Source: an uncultured Clostridia bacterium (GTDB lineage: Bacteria; Acidobacteriota; Aminicenantia; UBA2199). From it: a DNA stretch of 64,000 nucleotides. The number at the start of each line of letters is the position of its first letter. Position 1 is the stretch's first letter. The translations under genes and the position numbers were made by a program. The notes beneath the pieces were generated by a model. It had not been told where the DNA came from. It saw only the letters and a list, made by a program, of their open reading frames with translations, and made no database searches. Shown here in pieces: positions 10,319 to 61,531 of this stretch. The DNA is taken from NCBI GenBank assembly GCA_964633415.1, contig CAZWFY010000003.1, positions 12,460 to 76,459 on the forward strand, written 5' to 3'.

Positions 10319-10327
10319 GTTTTCTCC

Positions 10328-11485
10328 TTAATAATAATAACCTTTAACAGTTCTTATTTTATAACCTCTTTTTTTGTTAAGTTTTACTTCTATCTTTCTG
10401 AATGTTTTAATCTTCCCTTTTGAAACAGGTGTGAAATATAATAGATATTTAGCTTGAATATCCCTTCTGATCTTTTTATACATTCTCTTTATATCTTTTA
10501 CATCATCAAAGAAGAAGGGGATTCCTCCCGAAGATTTAGAAATCTTTTCAAGCAGTGTTTTATATTGTTCGTCGGAATATGAATAGGTTCTTTTTCCTAT
10601 AGAGTAAATTTCTAAGTTTGATTTTTCGGCTTTTTTCATTAATGTATAAGGGTCAATAAAAGAGCTGTTATCCTCTCCATCCGAAAATACTACAATTATA
10701 TTCCTTCCGGGAATTCCTTTGACCAGATTTATGCAATGTGCTATTGCATCATAAAGAGCGGTCGCACCAAAGGGAAAAGCAAGTGAAATAGAGTTCACAA
10801 GATCATTAATATTATCGGTAAAATCCGTATCTTCAATAACTTCATGATTAAAGAAAATCACAATTGCCTGATCGTTTTTTTTCATAAGATCTTCAAGAAA
10901 CATTTTCGCAGCTTCTTTAATATATCCCATTTTATCTTTCATGGAAGAGCTTATATCAATAAGAAGTACAAGATGAGAGTTCCCCATCTGATTTTTGATT
11001 CGGTTTAAGATAGAGATCTCAATTGGTCTGCCATTCTCTATCAGTGTGAAATCTTCTTTTTTTAGCCCCTTAACATAATTCCCATGCCGGTCTATAACTG
11101 CGATTGGAATTGCCATCTCAACGACATTTACGCTCTGGACGTCATCAAAATGATATGATTTTATCTCTTTCCTAAGTAGAACTCCTCTAAAATCTCTTAA
11201 GATAACTTTTAACTTTCTGTTTTTCGGAGATTTCCCGAAATTATAATAGAATGAGAATGGAGGATTTTGAATCTCTTTTAAATATTTCCCGTTAAGATAA
11301 AATTCTACGGAATGGATCTCTTTCGTTTCGATACCGGTTATCTTGACTTCAATCTTTCTTTTCCCGACCCAGACATCTTCGGCATCCGGTGAAATAAATT
11401 TAATATCTATATTTTCCCGGGATAGAGAGAAAGAAAAAAGTATAAAAAGACCGATAGTTATTATAAAAAATTTTTTTATATTCAT
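10328..11485 (-). CDS. VWA domain protein with N-terminal Ig-like domain
   Basis: Signal peptide; Ig-like VEFYLNG...PPFSFYY; VKGLKKEDFTLIENG; MIDAS DISSS..T(ALYDA)..SDGED; C-terminal KIRTVKGYY. Confidence 0.9.
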   Translation of the reverse strand: MNIKKFFIITIGLFILFSFSLSRENIDIKFISPDAEDVWVGKRKIEVKITGIETKEIHSVEFYLNGKYLKEIQNPPFSFYYNFGKSPKNRKLKVILRDFRGVLLRKEIKSYHFDDVQSVNVVEMAIPIAVIDRHGNYVKGLKKEDFTLIENGRPIEISILNRIKNQMGNSHLVLLIDISSSMKDKMGYIKEAAKMFLEDLMKKNDQAIVIFFNHEVIEDTDFTDNINDLVNSISLAFPFGATALYDAIAHCINLVKGIPGRNIIVVFSDGEDNSSFIDPYTLMKKAEKSNLEIYSIGKRTYSYSDEQYKTLLEKISKSSGGIPFFFDDVKDIKRMYKKIRRDIQAKYLLYFTPVSKGKIKTFRKIEVKLNKKRGYKIRTVKGYYY

Positions 11486-14400
11486 CTTATCCTCACATAA
11501 CCTCTTCTTTTATATTTCTTGAGTATTTTTTTGAAGTTTGAATTATTCATAATATTAAATATAAAGTAAGTCGTAAAAATATCTTTTTCATAATTCTGCT
11601 GATAGAATCTCGGAAATGATGATAGCAGATAATTAAACAGGAAGTGACCGTAAAGAGCTGTAGAATATTTTTTCTTGGATGCAAGGTAAGAGAGTCTCAT
11701 TTTAAATTCATTGAACTCCTCACCGAGAAAATAACCGGATTTAAAAATGTCAGCTTCCTCAGGCGGAAAAAGGTCTCTCCATTTCGGTCTCAAAGAGCCT
11801 AAACAGTTATAATATATATTTCCGAAATTATCCTTTTCATGTAGAATTTCCAAGCTGAGCGGGAGTTGAAAATATTTTTTCAAACGATCCTTTTGAGAAA
11901 ATATTTCGAGACATTTATTACAATCAATAAGGGATTTTCCTATTTTAAAGTATTGATTATAGAAGAGCAACAATTCATCATTTTTTCCCTCAAGATATTC
12001 GGAAGATTTTTTATATGAGTATCCGGAAAACAATTTCCCGATCTTTTCCGAAAGGAGTTTGTTAATCATTTTATTCGATTTGGCTTTTTCCAGTAGCTCA
12101 AGTCCGTACTCTATCAGAAGGGATATATATTCGGGAAAATATTTTAAATTAACATATGGATAAAATTGAAGAACATTGTAAAGCAGAGATTGAACCAATT
12201 GACTGTCAAAAATTATATTACCTGCAAGCATCTGATCTTTCCACACAGATGCAAATAGAAGGTTAAGCCTTGATAATCCTCCTTTAAGTCTAAATCCGGG
12301 AATACTTTTAAGCGTGAGGCTGGATTCCGGTCTGCCGGAATAATTCCATGGAGTGTGGTTACTTGATGTTCTGAAATCATGTAGTTTCACAAGGTTTGGG
12401 TTAATGAACATTCGCAATCTTTCCGATTTTGCATTGATAGCATATGCAATTGTAACGAGAAAATTTTTCAAGTGTGGAAAAATATATTTTTTCCTGAATC
12501 GATTTAAAATATTTTGCAGTTTCTTTTCATTTCCGTCTTTTTTTAAACCAATCCCAAGTTTTTTCAGATCCCTGTTTAACTCCTTCCTGGAATATGTCAT
12601 TACCCTTCTTTTTATAAAATCCGGAGCTTCATCACTGATTTCAGGGTGAGGGATTATCTGGAATAGTTTAATGATATTTTTAAAGGCTCTGCTTCTTGTG
12701 TTTATATCAGAAGATAGAATGGCACTGAACAATTGCTCGAATTCAAAAATAGAGGATAGTCTGATCACTTCCTGGGAATTAATAATGCTGTTAATTGATT
12801 TTTTAGTTATATTATTTAATTGGAATTCATACTCTTCATCTTCAATGTCAATCATCCTATTATTCAATCCTTGTAAGAGAAATTCAATAAATCTGTTGTC
12901 GATATAATTTTTTTTTAACGGGATATTAAAATTTTTACCGAACCATTCAAACATATCGTGAATAAATGTAGATTTATTAAGAGGTATTTTCAGTAATTCG
13001 TTTATTGTGCGGTCAAAATCATTTCCGTTAGTGTGATTTTTTGTGACAAATGCAAGTATTTCGAAATATGATTGATAAACAGCTGAAAAGTCAGCCCTGT
13101 CCGAAAGATTTTTTGTTTGAAGTTTTTTTACCCAGTTGAACATATTTATTGCGGTTTCCCAATCCTTAATATCAATTTTATCAATAAAATCTATCAGTAT
13201 GTTGTAATCTTTGTATCCGTGAAAGAATAGTCTTAATGTATTTTCATCTAAAAGTTCAGGACGATCAAGAAATTTTGAGTAAATTGAAATAATCTTTTTG
13301 ACTGCCGGAAATTCATCTTTGTATGAATTTTTCTCAAGCACGGTTTTAATAAACAGAAATGTGAGCTTATTTGCGTCATCAATATTTTTAATTTTTTTTG
13401 TCAGTTTCTTCTTGTTTAATATTCTTATCCAATTTTTTATATTCCCCGGGAAATATATTTTTCCGTCCCTCTCTTCCAAAGCATAGAGAAGATTGAAAAA
13501 CCCCTGCTTTCTTAATCTGGCAAATCTGTTGTCGGTCAATTTTTCATTCTTACTAAGTTTCACTAAGGATAAAATTTTTTTCATTTTAATGGGATCGAAG
13601 TTAAAGAATAAGGATTTAAGCTTTTTATTTGATTGCCAAAAAGATATTGAGTAGAGATAGTTAAGCTTCCCGTCTAAAGATGTAGTAATATTTTTCAGGA
13701 ATTTAAATTTCTCCTTCGAATAATCGGCATCGGCTATAATTGACCAGAATTTAACCGCTTTGTCTCCTCCGGGAATGTTAAGCATGTTATTCTTAACCCT
13801 TAAAGAACCTGACAGATTAAACAGTCCCATTAAAAATTTCCCGTCTTCATAGATAGTTTTCCATGGATTTTTAATGCTCTTTGTTTTGAGGTTTGAGATA
13901 TAATCTATTTCCGAATCCGATAATCTGAAAATAATTCCAAGTAAGATAGAGAGTCTTTTTTCCCGAACTATTTTTAATAAAAAATTATCTTTGTTTAGTG
14001 AAAAACCGGTTATATTATTTAAAAAGTCAAAATTTATATTTGCAGGGATATCGGATGTGATGTGCCGGTAGAAAATACGTCTTGTTTTATTGATCTGCTT
14101 TTCAAGAGATTTAATGTTTAGGTTTATAAATTTATGATAATCAACTATTCCCGTGGAATTATCAGACTCTATATTATAACCTTCTCCGGATTTCTCCATT
14201 ATCAATCCAAGGTAATTCATTAGTTTAATTCCGTTCCGCAGCCCCTTTCTTTTTGAGATATTAATTGTAAACATATTTTTCTCGAACAGAAATTTCTTTT
14301 TTATCAACTGATCAATTCTTTTTTCCATTAATATGATATCCATGATCTTTTTTCTCACACCGTTTTTTATCAGGTTTTTTGTCGGGGATTCTGAAAATAT

Positions 14401-14583
14401 AAGAAGATCGTTGAAATGATACAAAAAGTCTTTTGTAGGTAGATTATAATAAAAGTTTATATACCTTGAAAGTAAAGTTGCATTTCCCGGAATTTTGATA
14501 TTTTCGGTTTTAGTCTCGGACATGAGAGTAAGTTGAAATAGGGAAATTATTATAATTATTTTAAGTATATTTTTTTTAAACAT
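11482..14583 (-). CDS. Large exported helical hypothetical protein (1033 aa)
   Basis: Intact long ORF with signal peptide; ATGA overlap with the VWA gene; no recognisable catalytic motif. Confidence 0.75.
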   Translation of the reverse strand: MFKKNILKIIIIISLFQLTLMSETKTENIKIPGNATLLSRYINFYYNLPTKDFLYHFNDLLIFSESPTKNLIKNGVRKKIMDIILMEKRIDQLIKKKFLFEKNMFTINISKRKGLRNGIKLMNYLGLIMEKSGEGYNIESDNSTGIVDYHKFINLNIKSLEKQINKTRRIFYRHITSDIPANINFDFLNNITGFSLNKDNFLLKIVREKRLSILLGIIFRLSDSEIDYISNLKTKSIKNPWKTIYEDGKFLMGLFNLSGSLRVKNNMLNIPGGDKAVKFWSIIADADYSKEKFKFLKNITTSLDGKLNYLYSISFWQSNKKLKSLFFNFDPIKMKKILSLVKLSKNEKLTDNRFARLRKQGFFNLLYALEERDGKIYFPGNIKNWIRILNKKKLTKKIKNIDDANKLTFLFIKTVLEKNSYKDEFPAVKKIISIYSKFLDRPELLDENTLRLFFHGYKDYNILIDFIDKIDIKDWETAINMFNWVKKLQTKNLSDRADFSAVYQSYFEILAFVTKNHTNGNDFDRTINELLKIPLNKSTFIHDMFEWFGKNFNIPLKKNYIDNRFIEFLLQGLNNRMIDIEDEEYEFQLNNITKKSINSIINSQEVIRLSSIFEFEQLFSAILSSDINTRSRAFKNIIKLFQIIPHPEISDEAPDFIKRRVMTYSRKELNRDLKKLGIGLKKDGNEKKLQNILNRFRKKYIFPHLKNFLVTIAYAINAKSERLRMFINPNLVKLHDFRTSSNHTPWNYSGRPESSLTLKSIPGFRLKGGLSRLNLLFASVWKDQMLAGNIIFDSQLVQSLLYNVLQFYPYVNLKYFPEYISLLIEYGLELLEKAKSNKMINKLLSEKIGKLFSGYSYKKSSEYLEGKNDELLLFYNQYFKIGKSLIDCNKCLEIFSQKDRLKKYFQLPLSLEILHEKDNFGNIYYNCLGSLRPKWRDLFPPEEADIFKSGYFLGEEFNEFKMRLSYLASKKKYSTALYGHFLFNYLLSSFPRFYQQNYEKDIFTTYFIFNIMNNSNFKKILKKYKRRGYVRIR

Positions 14584-14675
14584 TTTTGCTCCACTTCATT
14601 AATACGAATTAAAGATTAAAAACGGATTGAATATCGCTTCTAAAATAAAGAGTAATTCTATATAATGTATTAGTA

Positions 14676-17486
14676 ATGTCAATAAAAAAAAAAAAATTTA
14701 TTTTTATAAGTTTAATACTTATGTTTTTCTCCGTTTCTTGTAAAAAAAAAATAGATATTAAAACCGAACCGAAATTCGTTATAAGTGAAAATGAGAAGGC
14801 GGCAACAATTTTTGAAGATGAAGACTCATATAAGGCTTCAAATTTTTTTTTGAAAAGAGCGATAGATGATTACCTTAAAGAAGGACATTGGGAAAGAGCC
14901 ATTCAAAACTATATTAAGCTTGGAAATGGATTTTCAAGATTAAAAAATTTTAAATCCGCACTTAAATATTTGAATATGGGATTGAATTTATCGATGGAAC
15001 ATTCCGGATATAAGTATTCTATTCTTGCTAAGAGCTATCATAAAATAGCCTTCGGGTTTATGAAGGAGAGAAAGTTTGAAAAGGCTGTAGAGATATATAA
15101 GAAAGCTCTTAAATTGAAAAAATCAATTTACGGGAAATATCATAGTGAAGTTTCCAGAACATACAACAGCCTTTCTTTGGCATACAGAAACATGGGTGAT
15201 AGTAAAAATGCAGATAAATATTATTACAAATCTCTTTTGATAAAATTACACCATTTTGAGAAAATTGATGATAATTTTTTCAAGGGATTTAAGTTTGTTA
15301 ATCGAATAAGTGAAAAGAGAAAGCTGTATAAAGAGGCAAAAAAAGTTTTAAACAAATCATTGAAAGTCTATCTGGAAACTTTTGGAGGTTATAGTAATCT
15401 AACTGCTGTTATTTTTGAAAATATCGGAATAATATATGCAATGGAAGGTGCATTTGACAGATCATTGGAGAATTTCAGAAATGCTTTGAGAATAAGGATA
15501 AATCTTTTTGGAGAGAATAGTTTTGAGGCAGCTGATACACTTCATGATATGGGAGTAGTTTTTTCCCTCCGAGGAAATAACCGTGAAGCTAAAAAATATT
15601 TACAGGAATCTCTTAAGATAAAAATATCAAGAGTCGGTGAATTTCATCTCTTCACGGCCGACACCTATTTTCAACTGGGAAAAATTTGTTATTTAAAGGG
15701 TGATATTGACCATGCCCTTAAGTATTTTCAAAATTCTTTATATGCCATGAATAAAAAATTTTCAAAATGCAAATATTGTTCCGCTCAGTATGGAAATTTT
15801 AAAAAATCAGAATTTACCAAAGATATAATAAATGTACTGAAGTATAAAGCTAAATCCCTGGTGGCAAAATCGGAAGGAGGTAATAAAAAGTTTGAAATCC
15901 TTATATCGGCTCAAAAAACCTATATTTTTCTTGTTAAAATCATTGAAATATTAAAAGAGAGGTTTAGAAGAGGGGAGAATAACAGTGAATTCAATAAGAC
16001 AGCCCAGAAAACAATAAAAGATGCGATTGATATATCTTATCGATTATTTTCAATCAGTGGTGAAAACAGATATAAGAAAGAGGCTTTTTCCCTTTCCGAA
16101 AAGAGTAAAGCCTCTTTGCTTTTAAGCATGATACATGAATCCGAAGCAAAGCAATCTTTCGGTATTCCTGAAAAGTTGTTAATTAGAGAAAAATTTTTGC
16201 AAAAAAAAATATCAGATTTTCAACTCTATAATGCCAAGAAGAGATATCGAAATAATAGACTTTCAGAAGGTAATAAAGATCCGGAAGAGCTGGATTATTA
16301 TAAGACACAAAGAGAGTATAGAGTCCTATTAAAAAAATTTGAGAAGGATTACAAAAATTATTTTATGGTGAAATATGAAAAGAAAATTGTTGATCCGGAT
16401 CTGTTTAGGATGAGATTGAATAAAAACGAGGCTGTAATAGAATATCTTCTCGGAGCAAACTATATTTATACTTTTTTTCTTTCAAATGATGATTTTTTAT
16501 TTCAACGTTTTGAAATACCTGATGATTTTAAAAGTTTAATCAATACATTGTATATATCAATAGAAAAGATAGAAGAGGATATGTTTATTGATTCTTCTAA
16601 GGAGCTTTATAGGATTTTGATAAAGCCCTTCTTGAAAAATCTGTCCGGAAAGGAAAAGTTGGTGATAATTCCTCATGGAAAGCTATTTTTATTGCCTTTT
16701 GAAGTGTTAATACCGGATGATGTGGATTTTTCCTCATTCTCTGACTTGAAATATTTAGTGAAACGTTTTTCGATATCATATAACTATTCATTGACCATCC
16801 GGGATTATATTCATAGCAGAAAAGTGGAAAATAACGGAGGATTTATCGGATATGCTCCGGTTTTTGATTGGGCGGTTTCCGCTTTACCTTATTTAATGAA
16901 GAAGGAGTTGCCGAAACTGCCTGCATCGGATATAGAATTGAGAAGAATTATTGATCTGTTCAGAATGAAAAAATTGAAAGCAGAAGGTTTCTTTTATGAA
17001 GATGCAACGGAAAATAGTCTTAAGAAAAATTTATCTACTAAAGATTATGCATTTGTTCATATTGCAACTCATACGATAATAAACAGAGAAAAACCCAATT
17101 TGTCAGGATTGATTTTCTCAACCGAAGAGGAGAAACTCGGAGGAGATGACGGGATTTTATTTTCCGGAGAGATATATAATATGAAATTCAAAACTAATCT
17201 TCTTGTTCTGTCAAGTTGTGAGAGCGGTGTAGGAAAATTGATGGAGGGAGAGGGAGTCTTGACTTTAAGCAGAGGCTTTTTGTATGCAGGAGCTAATAAT
17301 ATTATCTTTTCTCTTTTGAAAGTTGAGGACAAATCAACCGGAAAGTTGATGATAAATTTTTATAGAAATGTTCTGAATGGAAAAGGGTTCGCCGAATCTC
17401 TGAGATCGGCTAAATTAAAGCTCGTAACCGACCCTTATACGGCTTTTCCAAAATATTGGGGCGGTTTTATTTTATTGGGGGAATAG
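14676..17486 (+). CDS. TPR-CHAT (caspase HetF-associated) protease, predicted lipoprotein
   Basis: Lipobox FSVS-C; KLC-type TPRs (GKYHSEVSRTYNSL, GENSFEAADTLHDMG); CHAT motifs LVIIPHGKLFLLPFEVL, VHIATH, LVLSSCESG, YWGGFILLG. Confidence 0.92.
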   Translation: MSIKKKKFIFISLILMFFSVSCKKKIDIKTEPKFVISENEKAATIFEDEDSYKASNFFLKRAIDDYLKEGHWERAIQNYIKLGNGFSRLKNFKSALKYLNMGLNLSMEHSGYKYSILAKSYHKIAFGFMKERKFEKAVEIYKKALKLKKSIYGKYHSEVSRTYNSLSLAYRNMGDSKNADKYYYKSLLIKLHHFEKIDDNFFKGFKFVNRISEKRKLYKEAKKVLNKSLKVYLETFGGYSNLTAVIFENIGIIYAMEGAFDRSLENFRNALRIRINLFGENSFEAADTLHDMGVVFSLRGNNREAKKYLQESLKIKISRVGEFHLFTADTYFQLGKICYLKGDIDHALKYFQNSLYAMNKKFSKCKYCSAQYGNFKKSEFTKDIINVLKYKAKSLVAKSEGGNKKFEILISAQKTYIFLVKIIEILKERFRRGENNSEFNKTAQKTIKDAIDISYRLFSISGENRYKKEAFSLSEKSKASLLLSMIHESEAKQSFGIPEKLLIREKFLQKKISDFQLYNAKKRYRNNRLSEGNKDPEELDYYKTQREYRVLLKKFEKDYKNYFMVKYEKKIVDPDLFRMRLNKNEAVIEYLLGANYIYTFFLSNDDFLFQRFEIPDDFKSLINTLYISIEKIEEDMFIDSSKELYRILIKPFLKNLSGKEKLVIIPHGKLFLLPFEVLIPDDVDFSSFSDLKYLVKRFSISYNYSLTIRDYIHSRKVENNGGFIGYAPVFDWAVSALPYLMKKELPKLPASDIELRRIIDLFRMKKLKAEGFFYEDATENSLKKNLSTKDYAFVHIATHTIINREKPNLSGLIFSTEEEKLGGDDGILFSGEIYNMKFKTNLLVLSSCESGVGKLMEGEGVLTLSRGFLYAGANNIIFSLLKVEDKSTGKLMINFYRNVLNGKGFAESLRSAKLKLVTDPYTAFPKYWGGFILLGE

Positions 17487-18246
17487 GATATGGGGCTATC
17501 TTAAATTTACCGATATAGTAGAGATTGTTTTTATCGGTAAGTTTCCAATAATACAATCCCGGAAGAAGTTTCTTGTTCAAGATAAAGTTATTTGCCGAAA
17601 CATTAAACGTAAAGACAATAAAATTTTTATTATCAACTATTGAAAGTGTGAGCTCTTTTGAATCTATTCTCCCCCAACTGAATTTCACATTGTCATTGCC
17701 TCTGACGAAAGAGTGAAAGGAGTTTTGCGAAGAAAGTGAACTTCTCTCTATGCCGTTAGTCATTGCTTCCATATTCGGATTAGGGTCAAATCTCAATGAG
17801 CTTTTAACTTTTGAATTGATCTCAGGGTTTTTCTTTTCGGTTTTAGCTTTATTGAGTATAAATGAAATTTTACTCTTTTTATTGTTAGTTTCCGTCAAAG
17901 TTCTTTTTTTTGAGATTTTCGTTGTGTAAAACACCGATAGAAAAAGAATAAGAATGAAAGTTGCTGCAATTTGACCTATATATCTTTTCTTAATAAGGTT
18001 GTCCGTGTAGGATTTTATTGCATTTTTTTTCTCTAAACTACTTCTTTTTGTTGGAGAAGAAGTGATAATAGTGGATGAAAGAATATCCATAATTTTATCT
18101 TTACAGGCTGGACATTTGTCAAGATGATCATCGACTTCAGGAGTAAGTTCTACTTTTGCTGTTTTTCTGATGTCATCAATTATGAGTGAAATTGAATAAT
18201 CATTTAAATGACCGTTTTTTAAAAAATAATCTTCTCTATGAAGCAT
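17467..18246 (-). CDS. Putative transmembrane anti-sigma factor
   Basis: N-terminal HLDKCPAC (zf-HC-like), TM IAATFILILFLSVFY, C-terminal beta domain (FSW...PGLYYWKL); overlaps the sigma gene. Confidence 0.72.
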   Translation of the reverse strand: MLHREDYFLKNGHLNDYSISLIIDDIRKTAKVELTPEVDDHLDKCPACKDKIMDILSSTIITSSPTKRSSLEKKNAIKSYTDNLIKKRYIGQIAATFILILFLSVFYTTKISKKRTLTETNNKKSKISFILNKAKTEKKNPEINSKVKSSLRFDPNPNMEAMTNGIERSSLSSQNSFHSFVRGNDNVKFSWGRIDSKELTLSIVDNKNFIVFTFNVSANNFILNKKLLPGLYYWKLTDKNNLYYIGKFKIAPYPIPPIK

Positions 18247-19237
18247 TCTTCATTCTCCCGGTTTGTTTGTTTCTGTTAAAAAAGATTAGAAAAAGATCTG
18301 GGATGTTTTTAGAGTTGTAAGGATTATTAGGATGTGTTTTATTCATATGGTCCTTTATTTCTCCGATTTTGTCTGATATCCATTTTCTTAATGAATCCGG
18401 TCTAAGTTTAGGAGAAGAATACCTACTGTAAACAGGAGTGATTATTTCAAAAATTTTCCTTTCGTAAAGTGTTGAAAAATCCGAGGACAGAATATCTATA
18501 TCACTCTTACTGCAATTTTCAAAGCAGGCAAGAATTTCATCCTTCGAAGGCTTCTGATTATATTTCATCTTAAGAGTTAAAATGATTTTTGCCTGATTTT
18601 TTCTATAAAGAGAAAGAAGCATTCTCAATTTTTGTAACTCTTCATCTATAATGAGATTTGTAAAACCCTCCTCTCTTTGTCTTCCGGCTATATTGAGAAT
18701 ATTCACTTCTTTTGCTACCTTTTTCTCCTCTTTTTTTTCTTTTCTAAGCATATCTATATATATATTACGTATTGTAACCATAAAGTAGGACGTAAAAGTC
18801 GGATTTTGTTTTTCGCTGAAAGAAAATACTGATTTAAACTTTTCTATTTTATTTTTTAAAACGATCGTTATTATATCATGAACGATATCTTCAACTTCAT
18901 TTTTATTAAAATGTTTTTGTGAAATATATCTCACTATTAGATTTCTGTATAGAAGAACAAGAACATTCGGATGGAATTTTATTAAAGAATTAAGATTTAA
19001 AGCTTTTTTTACATCTTCTTCTTTTACCTTAAAATATTGCCGATTATCATTTTTGTCTTGTTTTTCTTCTTTTTGTTTTGTTATTTTCAGATAAAGTCCG
19101 GATAGTAACGGAACAAGGTCAGGGAAAATAGTGATCGGGAATCTCTCTTCCGGATATAATTGTTCCGTGATTATTTTAATAAGCTTTTCCATGCTATCTT
19201 TCTGATATTTTTTATCCGGATTTTCTGTATTTTTCAT
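18236..19237 (-). CDS. Sigma70/ECF-like RNA polymerase sigma factor, atypically long
   Basis: Region 2-like EVEDIVHDII...FTSYFMVTIRNIYIDMLRK; divergent region 4-like C-terminus; precedes anti-sigma. Confidence 0.72.
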   Translation of the reverse strand: MKNTENPDKKYQKDSMEKLIKIITEQLYPEERFPITIFPDLVPLLSGLYLKITKQKEEKQDKNDNRQYFKVKEEDVKKALNLNSLIKFHPNVLVLLYRNLIVRYISQKHFNKNEVEDIVHDIITIVLKNKIEKFKSVFSFSEKQNPTFTSYFMVTIRNIYIDMLRKEKKEEKKVAKEVNILNIAGRQREEGFTNLIIDEELQKLRMLLSLYRKNQAKIILTLKMKYNQKPSKDEILACFENCSKSDIDILSSDFSTLYERKIFEIITPVYSRYSSPKLRPDSLRKWISDKIGEIKDHMNKTHPNNPYNSKNIPDLFLIFFNRNKQTGRMKNAS

Positions 19238-19399
19238 TTGGGATGATCATTATATCATAATATGCAGATGCATCTAAATCAAAATGAAAAAAAGAGAAGT
19301 TTTATAAAGATTTAATTGCAAAAGTGAAAAGTTTGCTATAGAATTGGATTTGATTTTTTTTATAATGATAAAGCAAATTAATTCCGGAGGTTTTCTGGT

Positions 19400-20698
19400 A
19401 TGAAAAAAGTTTATGTAGGAATGAGTGCGGATATAATCCACACGGGTCATCTAAATATAATTAACGAAGCAAAAAAATATGGAGAAGTTATAGTAGGAGT
19501 TTTAACTGACAAAGCGATTGCATCGTATAAAAGACTCCCGTATTTATCACTGGAAGAGAGAAAGACCATAATAGAAAATATAAAAGGTGTATCAAAAGTC
19601 GTTTTACAGGAAACCCTTGATTATGTTCCCAATTTAAAAAAAATAAAACCCGATTTTGTGGTTCACGGCGATGACTGGAGAACGGGTCCTCAAAGAGAGA
19701 CTAGAGAAAGAGTCCTTGAAACTTTAAAGGAGTGGGGAGGGAAGTTGATCGAACCGGAATATACTCCCGGAATATCTTCTACAATGCTGAATGCAAAGGT
19801 AAGAGAGGTCGGAACCACTCCGGGAATAAGGATAAGAGCCTTAAGACGATTACTTGCAGCAAAAGGAATTGTGAGAATTATGGAAGCTCATAACGGATTA
19901 ACCGGGCTTATAGTGGAAAAGACAAAAATAAAGAAGAATGGAAGTGAAAAAGAGTTCGACGGAATATGGCTAAGCAGTCTGACCGATTCCGTTTCAAAAG
20001 GCAAACCGGATATAGGTTTTGTGGATCTTACCTCCAGAATGAATACTTTGAATAATATTCTGGAAGTGACAACAAAACCGATTATATTTGACGGAGATTC
20101 GGGGGGTCTTTCCGAACATTTCAGCTTTATGGTGAAAACACTGGAGAGAGAGGGCATCTCTGCAGTAATAATCGAGGATAAGGTGGGATCAAAGAGAAAT
20201 TCGCTTTTCGGAACGGAGGTAAAGCAAACTCAGGATTCCATAGAAAATTTTTGTGAAAAAATACGTGCCGGAAAAGAATCGCTTGTAACAAATGATTTTA
20301 TGATAATTGCAAGAATTGAGAGTCTTATTTTAAAGGCGGGAATGGAGGATGCAATAAAGAGAGCCGAAGCTTATATCGAAGCCGGTGCCGATGCAATAAT
20401 GATACATAGTAAAGAGAAGAGAGCCGACGAGATTCTGGAATTCTGTAGAAGATATAAGAAAATAAAGAACAATGTCCCGCTTGTTGTCGTTCCGAGTACA
20501 TATTCACATATAACCGAGGAAGAACTTGGAAAAGAAGGAGTAAGAATTGTAATTTACGCCAATCAGTTGCTGAGAAGCAGTTATCCTGTTATGAAAAAGG
20601 TCGCTGAATCAATTCTTGAGCATGGAAGAGCGAAGGAATGCGATGAGATGTGTATATCGATAAAAGATATCTTAACACTTATTCCAGGGAGCAAATAG
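19400..20698 (+). CDS. pepM: Phosphoenolpyruvate mutase with N-terminal cytidylyltransferase domain
   Basis: N-terminal HxGH (HTGH) nucleotidyltransferase; PepM signature EDKxxxxxNS ([10 protein letters not shown]), EAHNGL, DGDSG, ARIESL. Confidence 0.97.
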
Positions 20699-20700
20699 TA

Positions 20701-21798
20701 ATGGATCCAAAAAATTTTGTTGATGAAATAATAAAAAAAGGTTTCAACCCTTTTATGGGAGTTCCCTGTTCCGTTTTCACTTCGCTTTTAAACTATATTA
20801 ACGACAGTGCAAATACGGAAAATTATATATGTACATCGGAAGGAGAAGCGATGGGACTTGCGGGAGGATTCGCTTTGTCGGGAAAATATCCTGTTGTCTA
20901 TATGCAAAACGACGGTTACGGAAATGCTGTGAATCCTTTATCGTCACTTCAACTGCTTTATGATCTTCCTGCTCTTTTGTTGATTTCGTGGAGAGGATTC
21001 CCCGGAAAGAAAGATGCGCCTCAACATATGCTGATGGGAAAAACGATCGTTGAATTCCTTGAAATTTTTAAAATCCCTTATAAAATCCTTTCTGAAACAG
21101 ACGAAGATCTGAGAGAAATCTTAAACGAAGCTTCGGAATATTGTAAGAAGGAGAGCAAACCATTTGCGTTGATAGTGAAAAAGGGATATTTCTCTGAATA
21201 TTTAAGTGAAAGAACAGATAAAAAGAATCTGTTACCCATAAGGATTGAATACCTTAATGCATTAAAATCGGAATTGAAGAAAGATGATATTCTGTTAGGT
21301 ACAACCGGATTTACCGGACGTGAACTATATCAATCTATAGAGCATCCCGGTAAATTTTATATGACCGGATCAATGGGTTGTCTTGCATCTTTAGGACTTG
21401 GGATTGCAACCGAGAACCGGGGGAAAAGGATATTCCTTCTTGATGGTGACGGAGCTGTACTTATGAAGATGGGAAGCCTTGCTACAATCGGACACTATTC
21501 TCCTAAAAATTTCATTCATATATGCTTTGATAATTCTGCATACGAATCTACCGGAAGTCAGCCCACGGTTTCTTCGGGAACCGACCTGTGTAAAGTTGCG
21601 GAAGCAAGCGGATACAAATATACGTTAACTGTAACCGGTATCGAACAATTCAAAGAGATAGTAAAAAGTATCGACAAGTTGGAAAAACCGATGTTTTTAA
21701 GAGTTATGATACGTCCCGGAACTATAAACGGTTTGCAAAGACCATCCGATACACCTTTGCAAATGAAAGAAAAATTCAGAGATTTTATAAGAAGGTGA
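20701..21798 (+). CDS. ppd: Phosphonopyruvate decarboxylase
   Basis: GVPCS, EGEAMGLAGG, QNDGYGNAVNPL, HPGKFYMTGSMG, ThDP motif DGDGAVLM...DN. ATG 20701 follows the pepM stop (ORF track starts at 20650). Confidence 0.95.
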   Translation: MDPKNFVDEIIKKGFNPFMGVPCSVFTSLLNYINDSANTENYICTSEGEAMGLAGGFALSGKYPVVYMQNDGYGNAVNPLSSLQLLYDLPALLLISWRGFPGKKDAPQHMLMGKTIVEFLEIFKIPYKILSETDEDLREILNEASEYCKKESKPFALIVKKGYFSEYLSERTDKKNLLPIRIEYLNALKSELKKDDILLGTTGFTGRELYQSIEHPGKFYMTGSMGCLASLGLGIATENRGKRIFLLDGDGAVLMKMGSLATIGHYSPKNFIHICFDNSAYESTGSQPTVSSGTDLCKVAEASGYKYTLTVTGIEQFKEIVKSIDKLEKPMFLRVMIRPGTINGLQRPSDTPLQMKEKFRDFIRR

Positions 21799-22910
21799 GG
21801 TTGGAATATTTCAATCCGGTAAAAATACTTTTTGAAAATTTAAACTCAAAAAAAATGTCTGATATTTCCGGAAAAGGGAAGAGAAGGCTGATATTCTGTT
21901 ACGGAGGTTTTAAGGAGACTCCGGAATTATCGGCTTTTACAAAAGACAGCAAAAATGATTATATATATGGCGAAATTGAGAAGAACCCCTCTTTGGATAG
22001 TATTGACAGAGCTCTTAAGTTTGCAAGAGAGATCAAACCGGAAGTGATAATTGCAATCGGAGGCGGGTCGGTTATCGATACAGCTAAAGTCGTAAGATTC
22101 GGATGTCATTCCGATATATTTGATTCTTCCGAACTCATAGCTTTATCGAAGAACAGTGATTTGTCCACCGTTAAAAAACCGGTTTTTATAGCAATACCTA
22201 CTACACACGGGACAGGGTCGGAACTGACAATGTGGGCGACTGTTTGGGATAAAAAGAACAAAAAAAAACACTCGATTTCAAATAAAGATAATTATCCTGA
22301 TTTTGCCGTATATGATTTCGGACTTTTTTACTCTATCCCGTTAGAGGTTTCTATCTCATCTACTCTTGATGCATTATCACACTCATTTGAAGCGATATGG
22401 AATATCAACTCCAATCCTGTATCGGATCGTTTTGCATATGAAAGCATAAGATTGATTGCTGAAAATATCGGAAAGCTTAGCAGGATTACTCCGAAGGCGG
22501 TAAGGAAAGAATTGGTGTTATCCTCAATGTATGCGGGGTTGGCTTTCTCAAATACTAAAACAGCCGCTGCTCATTCGATAAGCTATCCGTTAACTCTGGA
22601 ATATGGAATTCCTCATGGAATAGCCTGCTCCATGCCACTTTTCCCTCTGCTTAAAATTAACGGGAGTAAAATCAAAGATAAGCTTTATGAACTTTTTAAA
22701 TGCACAAATTTAAACACTCCTGAAGAGTTGGAGGAGAGAATAAAGAGATCTATTGCAAACAGAGTGAATTTTTCGTTGAGAGATTACGGAGTGAAAGAGA
22801 AAGATCTGATTAACCTTGCTGAAAAATCTTTTACGAAAGAGAGAATGGCAAACAATATCGTTGAATTGACAAATAAAGATGTGTTTGAAATATTAAAGAG
22901 TATCTATTGA
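21795..22910 (+). CDS. Iron-containing alcohol dehydrogenase, probable phosphonoacetaldehyde reductase (gives 2-hydroxyethylphosphonate)
   Basis: GGGSVID, IPTTHGTGSE, DALSH, AHSISYPL, HG metal ligands; GTG start coupled to the ppd stop. Substrate inferred from context. Confidence 0.88.
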   Translation: MRLEYFNPVKILFENLNSKKMSDISGKGKRRLIFCYGGFKETPELSAFTKDSKNDYIYGEIEKNPSLDSIDRALKFAREIKPEVIIAIGGGSVIDTAKVVRFGCHSDIFDSSELIALSKNSDLSTVKKPVFIAIPTTHGTGSELTMWATVWDKKNKKKHSISNKDNYPDFAVYDFGLFYSIPLEVSISSTLDALSHSFEAIWNINSNPVSDRFAYESIRLIAENIGKLSRITPKAVRKELVLSSMYAGLAFSNTKTAAAHSISYPLTLEYGIPHGIACSMPLFPLLKINGSKIKDKLYELFKCTNLNTPEELEERIKRSIANRVNFSLRDYGVKEKDLINLAEKSFTKERMANNIVELTNKDVFEILKSIY

Positions 22911-22919
22911 GGGTTTTAA

Positions 22920-23609
22920 ATGAACAGTAGCAAAAAAAAACGGCTAAAAAATAGTGAATACGATTATAAAAAGTCTTTAAAAAGCGACGGATCCGACGGA
23001 AAAATTTCCAAATATTTGAATGTTGAAAAATATATTAATCGTCCTCTTGCTTCTCTTGTCGTGAAAATGGTTTTCAATACTAAAATAACTCCGAATCAGA
23101 TAACGCTTTTTTCCTTTTTTATAGGATTACTTGGAGCAGTCTGTTTTTCAGTCGGTAGCTATTCCTATGTTATTACAGGTGGGATTTTGATTCAGATTGC
23201 ATCGGTTTTTGATTGTTCCGACGGGATGCTCGCCCGTTCAAGAGGAGGAGGAACAATATTCGGAAAGTATCTGGATCTTTTCCTGGATAGAGTATCGGAT
23301 TTTATCATATTCTTCGGTGTTATTGCAGGTGTTTTCAGGGTTACTGGAAATTTCGAATTTTTGATTCTCGGGCTTTTTACTATTGGACTTTATATGCTTC
23401 AAGTTAACCTATTCTATATAAATAACCTTCTTGAGAAAAAGGGAACCGGAGAAACAGGGGAATTCAGAGCATTGGGTTTTTTTATATTAATGCTCCTTTC
23501 CATATTTAATAGAGTTGATATTTTTATTTATCTCTTGTCCGTTGAAGTAGTCTTAAATCTTATATTCAGGATATTGTATTTTCTTAAAACCGGAAGAGAA
23601 CTTGACTGA
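22920..23609 (+). CDS. CDP-alcohol phosphotransferase family protein
   Basis: Full motif DGxxAR-x8-G-x3-D-x3-D (DGMLARSRGGGTIFGKYLDLFLD); TPNQIT helix; multiple TMs. Confidence 0.92.
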   Translation: MNSSKKKRLKNSEYDYKKSLKSDGSDGKISKYLNVEKYINRPLASLVVKMVFNTKITPNQITLFSFFIGLLGAVCFSVGSYSYVITGGILIQIASVFDCSDGMLARSRGGGTIFGKYLDLFLDRVSDFIIFFGVIAGVFRVTGNFEFLILGLFTIGLYMLQVNLFYINNLLEKKGTGETGEFRALGFFILMLLSIFNRVDIFIYLLSVEVVLNLIFRILYFLKTGRELD

Positions 23610-23622
23610 ATCCGTTCATCTT

Positions 23623-25485
23623 TTAGTTGTTTAAATCAATCCCCAATTTTTTTAGTGTTCCTTTATCCGGGATTCCATTTCCATTGTAACCTCTTAATCT
23701 ATAATATTTTTTCAGCATTTTTGTTAGAGGGAATTTTTTTGTTTTTCCTTTTTTCTTATTCATTAATAACAACTTATCCGGCAGAGTGTCGTGGGAGGAA
23801 TTAACTCCTTCCCTGCAGTTCATATATCTTTCAAGAATGTGAATTCTTTTTCCCGCTCTTAAAAATTCTCTGTTTGATAATTTAATTCCCGTTACCGATG
23901 TGAACAAACCGGAATAGATTGAAAAATCAAGAAACGGTTTGGATAATCCCGGTAACAGCGTCATAACGATTTTCAGCAATAGTTTAGGTAAATATCTCAA
24001 TCTTAATGATTCGAGTATATAGGGATAGAATGTAAATAAGCAGGTGTGAATGGAATTGATTGATGAGATAATATTTTCAAAGAGAAAAACATATTTGGCT
24101 TTATTAAGTGTTGAGTTTTTTGGAATAAAACCGAGAGTTGTCTCAAGGGAAAAAATTGCAGATGAGAGATGACAGCCCCCTCTGTTTGCGACTGCATAAT
24201 TTAATCCCATACCCAAACTTCCCCTCGGATCATATCCGGCGACCTCAAGCCCTTTAACCTGAATTGCAAACTCTTTTCCGCCGTATTTTTCCGAGAGTTT
24301 TTTGCTCCCCATGGCGAGTTCCGCTCCGAAATTTCTTCTATATGCAATATCATAAAGTGTTTCGGAAATATTTTCAGAATTGCCGAATTTTAACGGGGAG
24401 TCGATAATTCCTTGTCCGGATGCTTCCATTGCATAAGCTATAGTACCTCCGGTTGATATCGTATCCAATCCCATTTCGGAACATATGTCATTCCATATCG
24501 CAATTGATTCCATATCAAATATCCCTATGTTGGATCCGAGAAGGACAGCAGATTCATATTCCGGTATTTTCATCTCTTTTCCGTTAAAATCCCCTTTGTG
24601 TCCACATAAGATTGAACAGTTTTTGCAGCTTTGATGTTTTGTTTTGAATTTTTTACTTATATATTCCCCTGATAGTTGTTCAGCTTTTTCACTGGTTCCT
24701 GAGGAAAAGTTATTAACCGGTAGTATTCCGGCTCTATTGTTTGATTTCACATACATTAACGTTCCGAATTTATTATATGCAGTTCCCGTATAATAGTTTC
24801 TCTTTATATATTGGAAACCCCTTTTTACAATTTTTTTAAAGGTTTTTTTATCGACAGGGTTAATGGAAAATTCATCTCCTTCAGCGACAATACCTTTGAT
24901 TTTTTTTGATCCGAGAACTGCACCGAGTCCTCCTCTTCCGAGAAATCTGTCATCTGAAGCAATATTTGCAAAATTGACGAGATTTTCTCCTGCAGGTCCT
25001 ATGACCATAGAGCCTTTCCCGTATTTTTGTAATAAACCGGAAGTATCACTTGTTGTCTTTCCCCATAGCTTTTTTGCATTTCGGAATTCTACGCCTGAAG
25101 AATCAATTCTTAAAAAGATAGGTTCTTCAGATCTTCCGGTAATTATCAGTCCATCCCATCCGGATGTTTTAAGTGCGTTTCCGAAAGAACCTCCGCAGGA
25201 AGAGTGGGTGATTATTCCTGTCAGGGGAGATTTGGAAACGGCTGAAAATCTTGCTGAATTCGGAGCTCCGGTTCCTATCAGGATTCCGGTTGCAATGATA
25301 AAAATGTTTTCACTACTTAACGGGTCAATTCCGGGTTTTAATCGTTCATAGAGTAATTTTAGTGCAAGACCTTTGCCGCCTAAAAATTTTTTCCTCTCAT
25401 CTTTTGAGATCAAGATTTCTTTATATATCTTTTTAGTTAAGTTTATTTCAATAAATCTGTTTGAAGTTCCTATTATCTCTTTCAC
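23623..25485 (-). CDS. aor: Tungsten-type aldehyde:ferredoxin oxidoreductase family protein
   Basis: FLGGKGLA, SKSPLTG, GRGGLGAVLGSK, CxxCxxxC (CKNCSILC), GLDTISTG, YDPRG, NRGGCH, YYRLRG. Confidence 0.92.
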   Translation of the reverse strand: MKEIIGTSNRFIEINLTKKIYKEILISKDERKKFLGGKGLALKLLYERLKPGIDPLSSENIFIIATGILIGTGAPNSARFSAVSKSPLTGIITHSSCGGSFGNALKTSGWDGLIITGRSEEPIFLRIDSSGVEFRNAKKLWGKTTSDTSGLLQKYGKGSMVIGPAGENLVNFANIASDDRFLGRGGLGAVLGSKKIKGIVAEGDEFSINPVDKKTFKKIVKRGFQYIKRNYYTGTAYNKFGTLMYVKSNNRAGILPVNNFSSGTSEKAEQLSGEYISKKFKTKHQSCKNCSILCGHKGDFNGKEMKIPEYESAVLLGSNIGIFDMESIAIWNDICSEMGLDTISTGGTIAYAMEASGQGIIDSPLKFGNSENISETLYDIAYRRNFGAELAMGSKKLSEKYGGKEFAIQVKGLEVAGYDPRGSLGMGLNYAVANRGGCHLSSAIFSLETTLGFIPKNSTLNKAKYVFLFENIISSINSIHTCLFTFYPYILESLRLRYLPKLLLKIVMTLLPGLSKPFLDFSIYSGLFTSVTGIKLSNREFLRAGKRIHILERYMNCREGVNSSHDTLPDKLLLMNKKKGKTKKFPLTKMLKKYYRLRGYNGNGIPDKGTLKKLGIDLNN

Positions 25486-27077
25486 TGTTTTTCAGTTTTT
25501 TTTGGAATATAACTCATAACTCTTTCTGCCATTGCAGTAATTGTAAGGCTTGGATTGACTCCGAGATTTGCGGGGATTGATGATCCGTCGATCACATACA
25601 TATTTTCATAACCGAAAACCTTATGATATTTATCAATAACACCTTCGCCGGCATCTTTTCCCATGGGGCATCCTCCGATAAGGTGTGCGGAGACCGGAGA
25701 ATTGAACAATATTTCGGTTACGGCACTCTGAGGAATTCCGTCAATTTTTTTTGCCATTTCTCTTGCTGCATCATTTGCGACCTGAATGTAAGCCGGGATC
25801 TTTTTTTCTCCCGTTATTGATGTTAAAACTTTTTTAAAAGGAAACAGCAGTCTTCTTTTTTTTGTGAGCCTTATTTTATTATCCGTAGTCTGCATCACGA
25901 GAAGAATTGTGGAAAGTTCCGCCCATCTATATGGGATTGATATTTTTAAAAACCTTAAAGGATGGATGATTATATCTTTTATCAGTTTAAAAAATCGTGG
26001 AACTTTTCCGGTCTTATCTACAAGAAGAGTTGTAAGAAAGTTCATTGCACTTGAGCCCTTAGGATATCGGACAACTTCTATATGAGTGGAGTCATTGACA
26101 TAAACCCCGGAAGTTATCGAAACGCCTTCGACTTTAAATCCTTTTCTTCTGTTTGCTGTGATTCCCGTCATAACTTCACTATTGGTTCTCGCACTGAAGC
26201 CGACTTTTTCAGATAATTTTTTCAAATATTCTTTTTCTTTACATTTAAGAAGAAGTTCATTGGTTCCCAAAGCACCTGCTGAAAATATGATACCTTTGGA
26301 GATAAATTTTTTCTTTTTATGCAAAGTTGCGATCCCGGTAACTTTTTTTGCCGAAATGCTGTAAGTTCCGTCACTATTCTGTGTGACCGATAATACTTTG
26401 TGCTGAGGAAGTATTTCCAGACCACGGTTCTCAGCGAGCCAGAGATAGTTTTTATCAAGACTGTTTTTCCCGTCGTCTCTGCATCCGACCATACAGTGCC
26501 CTGTTTTTGTGCAGCCTGTTCTTTCCGGTCCCTCTCCGTTGAAAAACGGATCCGGAACCTTTTTGCCGGGTTCACCGAAGAAGACTCCGACATCAGTGTT
26601 TTTAAAAAACTTTTCTCTTCCTATCTCTTTAGAATATTCGTATAACAGTTTATCTGCATCTGTCATTCCACTGTTTTTTGTTACTCCGAGCATCCTTTTT
26701 GCAGTATTATAGTGTGGGATAAGCTCCTTTTTCCAATCTTTATCAAGAGAGATCCACGATGGATCCGTGAAAAAGGGGTCGGGCGGGACGAGTAACGTAT
26801 TTGCATATACGAGGCTCCCGCCGCCGACTCCGCTCCCTGCTAGTATAAGGACATTTTTTAACGGTTGGATCCTTAATATCCCGTATAATCCGATTGCAGG
26901 AGCCCAGAGGAATTTACGAAGATTCCAGTTGGTTTTCGGGAAATTTTTTGGACGATATCTTTTTCCGCTCTCTATCATTAAGACCGAATAGCCTTTCTCA
27001 ACAAGTCTTAAAGCCGAAACACTTCCACCGAAACCCGAACCGATAATGATGTAGTCATAACTATTTGAATTTTCCAT
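25482..27077 (-). CDS. GMC-family FAD oxidoreductase (cholesterol oxidase ChoD-like)
   Basis: IIIGSGFGGSV FAD loop, GSGVGGGSLVYAN, HLIGGCPMG, GVNPSLTITAMAER. Confidence 0.9.
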   Translation of the reverse strand: MENSNSYDYIIIGSGFGGSVSALRLVEKGYSVLMIESGKRYRPKNFPKTNWNLRKFLWAPAIGLYGILRIQPLKNVLILAGSGVGGGSLVYANTLLVPPDPFFTDPSWISLDKDWKKELIPHYNTAKRMLGVTKNSGMTDADKLLYEYSKEIGREKFFKNTDVGVFFGEPGKKVPDPFFNGEGPERTGCTKTGHCMVGCRDDGKNSLDKNYLWLAENRGLEILPQHKVLSVTQNSDGTYSISAKKVTGIATLHKKKKFISKGIIFSAGALGTNELLLKCKEKEYLKKLSEKVGFSARTNSEVMTGITANRRKGFKVEGVSITSGVYVNDSTHIEVVRYPKGSSAMNFLTTLLVDKTGKVPRFFKLIKDIIIHPLRFLKISIPYRWAELSTILLVMQTTDNKIRLTKKRRLLFPFKKVLTSITGEKKIPAYIQVANDAAREMAKKIDGIPQSAVTEILFNSPVSAHLIGGCPMGKDAGEGVIDKYHKVFGYENMYVIDGSSIPANLGVNPSLTITAMAERVMSYIPKKTEKQ

Positions 27078-61522: not shown

Positions 61523-61531
61523 GAGGTTTTT

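Follow-up and report, generated by a model that had tools for sequence, protein, structure and literature searches.

We analysed a 64-kb window of DNA (the whole stretch under study) from an uncultured Clostridia bacterium (GTDB Acidobacteriota; Aminicenantia; UBA2199; assembly GCA_964633415.1, contig CAZWFY010000003.1), in which a compact operon on the forward strand at 19400-23609 encodes a candidate pathway for the synthesis, activation and transfer of the phosphonate 2-hydroxyethylphosphonate (HEP). The operon consists of four tightly packed genes, for a fusion of a cytidylyltransferase (CyT) to phosphoenolpyruvate (PEP) mutase (PepM), a phosphonopyruvate decarboxylase (Ppd), an iron-dependent alcohol dehydrogenase (Fe-ADH, hereafter ADH) and a CDP-alcohol phosphotransferase (PT). 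Successive genes are joined by a 2-bp gap, a 4-bp overlap and a 9-bp gap, and catalytic motifs are intact in all four proteins. An original prediction had described these four open reading frames (ORFs), and their order, coordinates, tight spacing and divergent and convergent flanks all proved accurate to the base. The genes and domains of the operon are:

19400-20698, forward strand: CyT-PepM fusion, 432 amino acids (aa), with PF01467 at aa 9-130 and PEP_mutase at aa 148-406
19400-19819, forward strand: Fom1-type cytidylyltransferase domain, predicted to convert CTP and HEP to CMP-HEP and pyrophosphate (PF01467, E 1.5e-17)
19820-20698, forward strand: PEP mutase domain, converting PEP to phosphonopyruvate (TIGR02320)
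20701-21798, forward strand: Ppd, 365 aa, thiamine pyrophosphate (TPP)-dependent, converting phosphonopyruvate to phosphonoacetaldehyde (TIGR03297)
21795-22910, forward strand: PhpC-like group III (Fe/Zn) ADH, predicted to reduce phosphonoacetaldehyde to HEP (PF00465 and PF25137)
22920-23609, forward strand: class I CDP-alcohol phosphotransferase, 229 aa, predicted CMP-HEP:alcohol HEP-phosphonotransferase (PF01066, 54 bits)

The C-terminal part of the fusion protein scores 410.1 bits with the PEP mutase equivalog TIGR02320, above the cut-off of 319.55, and matches PEP mutases of known structure (PDB 5unc, E 2e-44; 1m1b, E 8e-39). At aa 259-268 the protein carries the EDKxxxxxNS motif that has been used as a filter to tell true mutases from their isocitrate-lyase relatives (PMC6697681). 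The N-terminal domain matches the structure of a Fom1 CyTase domain construct (PDB 5x3d, E 1.4e-56), with 86 of 134 residues identical (64%) in a gapless alignment, and its nucleotide-binding motifs HTGH (aa 14-17) and YTPGISST (aa 121-128) both agree with the Fom1 sequence (pattern HxGH, RTxGISTT-like). Fom1 makes CMP-HEP from HEP and CTP (Cho et al. 2017, as summarised in PMC6697681), and fusions of this PF01467 type make up 23.6% of PEP mutases (PMC6697681). We predict that the N-terminal domain is a HEP cytidylyltransferase, with the proviso that identity alone is no proof of a preference for HEP over 2-aminoethylphosphonate (AEP). Across relatives the CyT domain shows no less conservation than the mutase domain (73-91% versus 65-88%), and so is under selection.

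PEP mutase and Ppd form the established entry to phosphonoacetaldehyde, from which an Fe-ADH of the PhpC/FomC type then gives HEP (PMC8942020, PMC13576164). The Ppd of the operon scores 381.2 bits with TIGR03297 (cut-off 312.5), bears the TPP motif GDG-x26-NS at aa 249-279, and has the phosphonopyruvate decarboxylase 9iz3 (alpha and beta subunits) as its nearest solved structure. Gene calls in three independent assemblies, together with the profile alignment, place its start at the ATG at 20701; the mechanical ORF listing runs from an upstream GTG (20650-21798). For the ADH, the best NCBIfam model is TIGR03405 (PhpC/PsrA type) at 272.9 bits, with the next family 113 bits behind at 160 bits, and the signatures GGGS (aa 89-92), PS00913 (aa 171-199), H260 and H274 are all present. 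Its closest solved structures include, at rank 2, 6jko (E 7.9e-35), which we take to be a sulfoacetaldehyde reductase. The ADH gene adjoins pepM and ppd here and in all syntenic loci, and PhpC-type enzymes are in general very divergent, with a mean identity of 39% (PMC13576164).

The presence of an ADH in place of an aminotransferase bears on which phosphonate is made. No aminotransferase lies within 10 kb on either side of the operon, and the window ORFs that were scanned, seven smaller ones of them judged by eye only, include neither a PF00266-type AEP transaminase nor, among those scanned, a glycosyltransferase or LicD-type gene. The sole pyridoxal phosphate enzyme near the operon (32101-33408) is of the Cys/Met-metabolism type and sits inside a methionine operon. 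Using tblastn with the window's proteins to find the syntenic genes in relatives, we observed that every syntenic locus has an Fe-ADH where AEP clusters carry a transaminase, next to Ppd; in each of about 20 such loci the Fe-ADH is present and an aminotransferase absent. ORF and family scans agree with the original prediction that the operon itself lacks an aminotransferase, a glycosyltransferase and a transporter. The product might still be AEP-based if a distant aminotransferase turned phosphonoacetaldehyde into AEP and the ADH were a side activity: AEP is the commonest phosphonate, found in 56% of neighbourhoods (PMC8942020), and our transaminase search covered only 64 kb of the genome. We nevertheless regard this as extremely improbable, as the ADH is kept in every syntenic locus, rearranged ones included, tblastn detected no Fe-ADH or Ppd beside non-PepM PT paralogs, and the scanned ORFs, with the same seven judged by eye, hold no PF00266-type transaminase.

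The route from PEP through phosphonopyruvate, phosphonoacetaldehyde and HEP to CMP-HEP, as first predicted, is thus well supported by homology (PepM and Ppd equivalogs, a PhpC-like ADH and a Fom1-like CyT). In this route, PEP mutase would convert PEP to phosphonopyruvate, and Ppd would convert phosphonopyruvate to phosphonoacetaldehyde, pulling the unfavourable mutase equilibrium forward; strong homology to characterised enzymes underlies both steps. The PhpC-like ADH would next reduce phosphonoacetaldehyde to HEP, as family-level homology and context suggest, and the Fom1-type CyT domain, again by strong homology, would join HEP and CTP to form CMP-HEP.

The fourth protein, the PT, carries a perfect CDP-alcohol phosphotransferase signature, D1xxD2G1xxAR...G2xxxD3xxxD4 (DCSDGMLARSRGGGTIFGKYLDLFLD at aa 98-123), which extends to D98xxDGxxARx8Gx3Dx3D123-RxxD127 and whose eight residues are invariant in a 24-sequence alignment. 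An AF2 model (pLDDT 87.6) predicts a juxtamembrane helix followed by six transmembrane (TM) helices, with model helices at residues 35-51, 58-78, 81-107, 113-142, 145-171, 180-195 and 199-228. The closest solved structure is AF2299 (profile E 2.3e-26; Foldseek TMq 0.72), along with IPCT-DIPPS; PIP synthases rank after these, and the eukaryotic choline/ethanolamine phosphotransferases match much less well. The PT scores far below the cut-off of every NCBIfam equivalog of the AIP, PIP, DIPP, PGP and PS synthases, the best being archaetidylinositol-phosphate (AIP) synthase (79.5 bits against a cut-off of 180), with DIPP synthase also among the best. Judged by sequence, the PT clade is an uncharacterised subfamily.

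These matches confirm the enzyme assignments made in the original prediction for the CyT-PepM fusion (PF01467, TIGR02320 above cut-off, 64% identity to Fom1), for Ppd (TIGR03297 above the equivalog cut-off) and for the CDP-alcohol phosphotransferase (PF01066, full signature, polytopic fold). The further assignment of the Fe-ADH to the PhpC/FomC type holds in that this is the best family by more than 100 bits, but the score lies beneath the family's cut-off.

When one genome per GTDB species was scanned with a PT profile, 80 loci were returned, nearly all of them carrying an Aminicenantes or Acidobacteriota label. The arrangement in the window recurs in three further assemblies, from different samples, that carry the same PT protein, and 15 loci (L001, 3, 4, 6, 7, 9-13, 16, 17, 21, 23 and 24) hold the full four-gene set with its order unchanged, two short contigs holding part of it; PT identity among the four-gene loci is 43-75%. 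In three more loci (L005/L083, L018 and L019) the genes are rearranged, with Ppd, ADH and CyT-PepM in that order on one strand, converging on PT. In L005/L083 and L019 the Ppd and ADH are 34% identical to those of the window, L018 being too short to include them, and the rearranged version is independent of the window's gene order. Because the four genes are kept together across high divergence and in two architectures, we conclude that they work together and that their linkage is selected.

In a rough neighbour-joining tree, which we used for broad grouping only, the PepM-type PTs group mainly with cytidylyltransferase-linked paralogs and not with a clade whose genes occur with a flippase and a HAD phosphatase (PT-flippase-HAD); three PepM-linked loci fall outside the main PT clade. 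About 31 of the 58 sister PT paralogs are paired with a stand-alone cytidylyltransferase or NTP-transferase. At 11 of these loci a stand-alone PF01467 protein, with glycerol-3-phosphate cytidylyltransferase as its best model, is encoded next to the PT, and at about 20 the partner is a PF12804/PF00483 NTP-transferase with IPCT-like similarity. PepM-linked and cytidylyltransferase-linked PT copies can coexist in one genome (L001 with L026, and L011 with L014). In the window itself, tblastn found neither a further PT nor a further cytidylyltransferase. More broadly, the AF2299-like PTs of Aminicenantes form an uncharacterised radiation, none of whose members reaches an NCBIfam equivalog cut-off, and stand in five or more gene contexts: beside a stand-alone TagD-like cytidylyltransferase, in epimerase-SDR-NTP-transferase and methyltransferase-NTP-transferase groups, with an M16-like peptidase, a flippase and a HAD phosphatase, and beside PepM (example loci are L014, L015, L020, L022, L025, L026, L037, L044, L030 and L046, and about 20 such as L052 and L041).

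The PT is the obvious user of CMP-HEP, as no other protein of the operon could consume it. The pocket in which AF2299 and DIPPS hold CDP-glycerol and CDP-inositol is small and hydrophilic (PMC4634129), and these closest structures, the nucleotidyltransferase-paired sister PTs and an independent pairing in Spirochaetota (described below) all argue for a small CMP- or CDP-linked donor. We consider it quite likely that the PT takes CMP-HEP as its donor. As the genomic context suggests, an acceptor hydroxyl would attack the phosphonate phosphorus of CMP-HEP at the membrane PT and CMP would leave, giving a HEP phosphonate mono-ester, R-O-P(O)(O-)-CH2CH2OH. On balance, we propose that the operon builds a HEP head group, activates it as CMP-HEP and attaches it to an acceptor that, as our best guess, is membrane-anchored.

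Candidate membrane-anchored acceptors would include diacylglycerol, another glycerolipid or glycolipid, and a lipid-linked glycan. In relatives, a convergent gene for a PF03706/TIGR00374 MprF-type flippase-like protein stands right after the PT at 39 of 78 loci, across PT subtypes, and at 11 of the 17 PepM-type loci, including the closest relative, L001 (for example, L001 9345-10307 and L007 10675-11688, both on the reverse strand; PF03706 E 1.8e-34, TIGR00374 above cut-off, best model HpnL). Elsewhere, genes of this family adjoin those for lipid head-group enzymes, as in clsB-ybhN, gpgSDF and MprF. A membrane-anchored product is favoured because most relatives have this neighbour and because the family otherwise keeps such company; the product may be an anionic, phosphatase-resistant HEP lipid that, in relatives, would be moved across the membrane by the MprF/YbhN-type flippase-like protein. 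Given CMP-HEP as donor, a lipid or lipid-linked acceptor has slightly better than an even chance, a soluble acceptor is rather unlikely, and the remainder falls to a non-lipid glycan. Tentatively, the PT could be a bacterial Kennedy-type phosphonotransferase that places HEP directly on diacylglycerol or another membrane lipid to yield a new lipid class, a possibility we take seriously while still doubting it. Were it true, the HEP lipid would be an anionic, amine-free analogue of phosphatidylglycerol with a C-P-bonded head group that resists phosphatases, and most Aminicenantes would export it through an MprF-like flippase dedicated to it. A bolder and less likely variant is that the free HEP hydroxyl lets the enzyme add further HEP units, producing a teichoic-acid-like poly-phosphonate. 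The original prediction had continued from CMP-HEP to a HEP ester, most simply a HEP phosphonolipid; comparative genomics makes the transfer reasonable, but the lipid product goes beyond what is established.

The architecture of the PT raises the competing idea of a soluble acceptor. According to Clarke et al. (PMC4634129), six-TM CDP-alcohol phosphotransferases use soluble acceptors, lipid-acceptor enzymes having three to four extra helices, and AF2299 and DIPPS "do not process lipids". The PT might accordingly move HEP to a small soluble alcohol such as glycerol-3-phosphate, inositol-1-phosphate, glycerol or HEP itself, with the chemistry unchanged up to CMP-HEP, and the soluble phosphonate diester so formed would parallel the di-myo-inositol-phosphate and diglycerol-phosphate solutes. 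Consistent with this idea are the nearest solved homologs (AF2299, which binds CDP-glycerol, and IPCT-DIPPS), the best NCBIfam matches (archaetidylinositol-phosphate and DIPP synthases), the six-TM fold and the lack of a flippase-like gene in the window. We consider a soluble diester unlikely, since it leaves unexplained both the MprF-type flippase-like gene after the PT in most relatives and a Wzx-like flippase after the analogous Spirochaetota PT, and since the PepM-type loci are without the phosphatase gene expected for a phosphorylated acceptor, as in DIP synthesis.

A different use of the same enzyme would reconcile the six-TM rule for soluble acceptors with the flippase association. If CDP-diacylglycerol were the donor and free HEP, through its hydroxyl, the acceptor, in the manner of PgsA or PIP synthase, the PT would form phosphatidyl-HEP with a terminal free phosphonate, and the CyT domain would serve some other purpose. 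Relatives of the PT do include PIP synthases, HEP is similar to the small anionic alcohols that PgsA and PIP synthase accept, and the PT-flippase-HAD subtype, having no cytidylyltransferase neighbour, may use CDP-diacylglycerol. Phosphatidyl-HEP would, however, leave the strongly conserved CyT domain without a consumer for CMP-HEP, and in the closest structures the pocket for the donor substituent is small and hydrophilic. The PepM-type PTs, moreover, group mainly with cytidylyltransferase-linked paralogs in the rough tree, three loci lying outside. We judge this outcome improbable.

Returning to our preferred interpretation, transfer of HEP from CMP-HEP to a membrane-anchored acceptor, several observations weigh against it. 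The PT is a six-helix protein closest to AF2299 and DIPPS, enzymes with soluble substrates. By tblastn, no flippase-like gene is present in the 64-kb window; the gene has been lost or moved in this genome. The PT-flippase-HAD subtype lacks a cytidylyltransferase neighbour, and some members of the PT family may use CDP-diacylglycerol. A comparison of PepM-linked PTs with the other subtypes yields only three weak class-specific positions (E36, G180 and E209), which are not diagnostic of donor or acceptor. Upstream of the transfer step, the ADH falls under the TIGR03405 equivalog cut-off (272.9 against 423.7 bits). The flippase-like gene also qualifies the original description of the operon as minimal and self-contained, which fits the family imperfectly: in 11 of 17 PepM-linked relatives the PF03706 gene stands fifth, and it is missing here.

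The CyT-PepM, Ppd and ADH genes also occur together, as a triad, far from Aminicenantes. The collection that we searched holds more than 8000 relatives of the fusion protein, among them proteins 72-77% identical in WOR-3, Spirochaetota and unclassified bacteria. We examined six other contexts, five of which have the full triad, each with different neighbours: sulfatase/LtaS-like proteins with GT4 and Wzx-like genes in one, YidC-sulfatase fusions in another, TagF-like glycerophosphotransferases in a third, an O-antigen-like locus in a fourth, and long CDP-alcohol phosphotransferases in a metagenome-assembled genome (MAG) from Spirochaetota. In the sixth context the neighbours of the CyT-PepM fusion are a PF03706 gene and a sulfatase-like gene, and Ppd and ADH are not adjacent. 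The Spirochaetota MAG has the same triad and then a separate AF2299-like PT of about 400 aa, 27% identical to that of the window, with a Wzx-type flippase after it. Because the triad recurs in other phyla with other transferases, HEP activation is a widespread module for conjugate synthesis, and the short AF2299-like PT is the Aminicenantes solution. The Spirochaetota locus (L088 3905-14495) as a whole sets the triad amid three AF2299-like PTs of about 400 aa, a PLD-family protein and the Wzx-like flippase, and is a richer candidate HEP-lipid or HEP-glycolipid locus.

Some of these neighbourhoods suggest that CMP-HEP might decorate a cell-surface glycan or polymer rather than a membrane lipid, yielding a phosphonoglycan like the HEP exopolysaccharides. 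Known HEP conjugates are glycans (PMC8942020, PMC13576164), and in other phyla the triad stands in clear polysaccharide loci (GT4, Wzx/Wzy, TagF-like and sulfatase/LtaS-like genes). We hold this to be decidedly improbable for the operon described here, as no glycosyltransferase, Wzx/Wzy or polysaccharide gene lies near it or near its counterparts in Aminicenantes relatives. To our knowledge, moreover, class I CDP-alcohol phosphotransferases do not modify free glycans.

The operon varies a known phosphonyl-tailoring logic and is not a new kind of system. Its chemistry up to CMP-HEP is the same as that of the fosfomycin Fom1-Fom2-FomC enzymes of Streptomyces, which likewise comprise a PF01467-PEP mutase fusion, a Ppd and an Fe-ADH. 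In the fosfomycin pathway, however, cytidylylation is transient, with Fom3 methylation, FomD hydrolysis and Fom4 epoxidation coming after it, whereas CMP-HEP here presumably serves as donor for a membrane phosphotransferase. We also considered a fosfomycin-like antibiotic cluster and rejected it, there being no Fom3 (a B12 radical-SAM methyltransferase), Fom4 or FomD within 10 kb on either side of the operon or among the scanned window ORFs. The chemistry that we propose for the last step is exactly that of ciliates, in which a CDP-alcohol phosphotransferase, accepting a CMP-phosphonate instead of a CDP-alcohol, transfers AEP from CMP-AEP to diacylglycerol in a Kennedy-type reaction; the ciliate system differs in being eukaryotic, in using enzymes with more transmembrane helices and in having AEP rather than HEP as head group. 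AF2299 and IPCT-DIPPS of Archaeoglobus fulgidus share with the PT the six-TM and juxtamembrane fold, the DxxDGxxAR...DxxxDRxxD motif and a cytidylyltransferase partner that makes a small CDP-alcohol. At about 25-27% identity, they differ in carrying the cytidylyltransferase-like domain on the same chain and in making soluble phosphodiesters, whereas in the operon the cytidylyltransferase is fused to PEP mutase, the predicted donor is a phosphonate, and relatives have a lipid-flippase-like neighbour.

Phosphonolipid groups were reportedly defined by Yu et al. in 2013 (PNAS). The "Burkholderiales_CDP-OH" or Group 1 clusters (Li & Horsman 2022) resemble the operon in combining PEP mutase, Ppd and a fused cytidylyltransferase with CDP-OH phospholipid genes, and their predicted phosphonolipid product has never been isolated. 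Their core comprises seven genes, among them those for an AEP transaminase, a 2-oxoglutarate oxygenase and two cytidylyltransferases, with 1-hydroxy-AEP as the predicted phosphonate; the operon, from a different phylum, has no transaminase or oxygenase and an Fe-ADH instead. Pnt pathways with PntC (Treponema denticola, Atopobium rimae; Rice et al. 2019, PMC6697681) follow the same order of events, in which a phosphonate is made, CMP-activated and handed to a transferase; their cytidylyltransferase is often fused to PEP mutase and their product is a cell-surface decoration. Characterised PntC is, in contrast, LicC-like (PF12804) and prefers AEP, and its clusters contain an AEP transaminase and LicD-like or glycosyl transferases, where the operon has a PF01467 cytidylyltransferase, HEP and a CDP-alcohol phosphotransferase. 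The only isolated HEP conjugates are the phosphonoglycans of Stackebrandtia nassauensis and Glycomyces, made by the same PepM-Ppd-ADH route (PMC8942020); there HEP is carried on an exopolysaccharide and the clusters contain polysaccharide genes, of which the operon has none.

In the literature that we searched, we found no HEP lipid or CMP-HEP-dependent transferase, no characterised bacterial transferase with a CMP-phosphonate as donor, and no link between Aminicenantes and phosphonate biosynthesis. The operon's product would be an undescribed kind of phosphonate conjugate, built on known phosphonyl-tailoring logic. Roughly half of the phosphonate gene clusters in bacteria are believed to serve the decoration of lipids or glycans, and this operon, with four genes, no tailoring and a single candidate transferase, is close to the simplest test case for a PT that uses a CMP-phosphonate. 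It could offer initial biochemical access to the envelope of the Aminicenantes, an anaerobic lineage that is widespread and uncultured, and could help to explain the source of environmental HEP, whose dedicated catabolic pathways were recently described.

The features that flank the operon are:

18236-19237, reverse strand: sigma-70-like gene, the divergent upstream flank
19238-19399, forward strand: intergenic leader between the sigma-like gene and the operon
19316-19344, forward strand: promoter-like site TTGCAA-17-TAGAAT, inside the leader
19387-19391, forward strand: GGAGG ribosome-binding site, 9 nt ahead of the first ATG
23623-25485, reverse strand: aldehyde:ferredoxin oxidoreductase (AFOR) gene, the convergent flank, its stop 13 bp from the PT stop

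The site in the leader does not amount to a demonstrated promoter, as the scan found 12 promoter-like sites against 13.9 expected in shuffled sequence. Terminator counts were likewise not above those in shuffled sequence, with no terminator-like site after the PT, and Rfam and tRNA scans of the whole window gave no match, hence no riboswitch upstream of the operon. The sigma-70/ECF-like protein has 333 aa, a long N-terminal extension and only weak region-2 matches. Its gene shares 11 bp with the gene of a possible anti-sigma factor, a protein of 259 aa that has a CPACKDK motif and a single hydrophobic segment; together the two span 17467-19237 on the reverse strand. The sigma-like gene is 47% identical in L001, and other relatives have different upstream genes.

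On the other side, the AFOR gene (PF02730/PF01314, tungsten-type) and a gene for a GMC oxidoreductase that scores best with a cholesterol oxidase model (612 bits, under the cut-off of 850) overlap by 4 bp and form a convergent unit directly after the operon (23623-27077, reverse strand). The same pair follows the PT in L001, L007 and L011, and follows a non-PepM PT in L002. We considered whether these two enzymes act on phosphonoacetaldehyde or HEP and rejected the idea, as the synteny is confined to the closest subclade and also occurs after the non-PepM PT. The pair seems to reflect synteny within the lineage and not membership of the pathway, although an alcohol-to-aldehyde-to-acid pair beside a HEP operon is curious.

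Other parts of the window hold features of separate interest. Directly upstream of the sigma-like gene and its partner lie the genes for several large proteins (8708-17486): a 936-aa TPR-CHAT (caspase-like) protein, a VWA-domain protein and proteins of 1033 and 536 aa without a Pfam match. A division and cell-wall cluster on the forward strand (49493-62812) has overlapping genes in the order mraZ-rsmH-ftsI-murE-murF-murD-ftsW-murC-(ftsQ-like, no Pfam match)-ftsA-ftsZ, without mraY in the murF-murD interval and without murG in the ftsW-murC interval. At 37409-38605 on the reverse strand lies the gene for a secreted-looking protein of 398 aa without a Pfam match, made up of three internal repeats of about 130 aa with the motif ...PCFIGAHI.GT.NWSYIPAG..P.GVPKGQ.... 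Finally, a 337-aa protein with homing-endonuclease-associated repeats (PF18780) is encoded at 45765-46778 on the forward strand, between purA and a thioredoxin-like gene.

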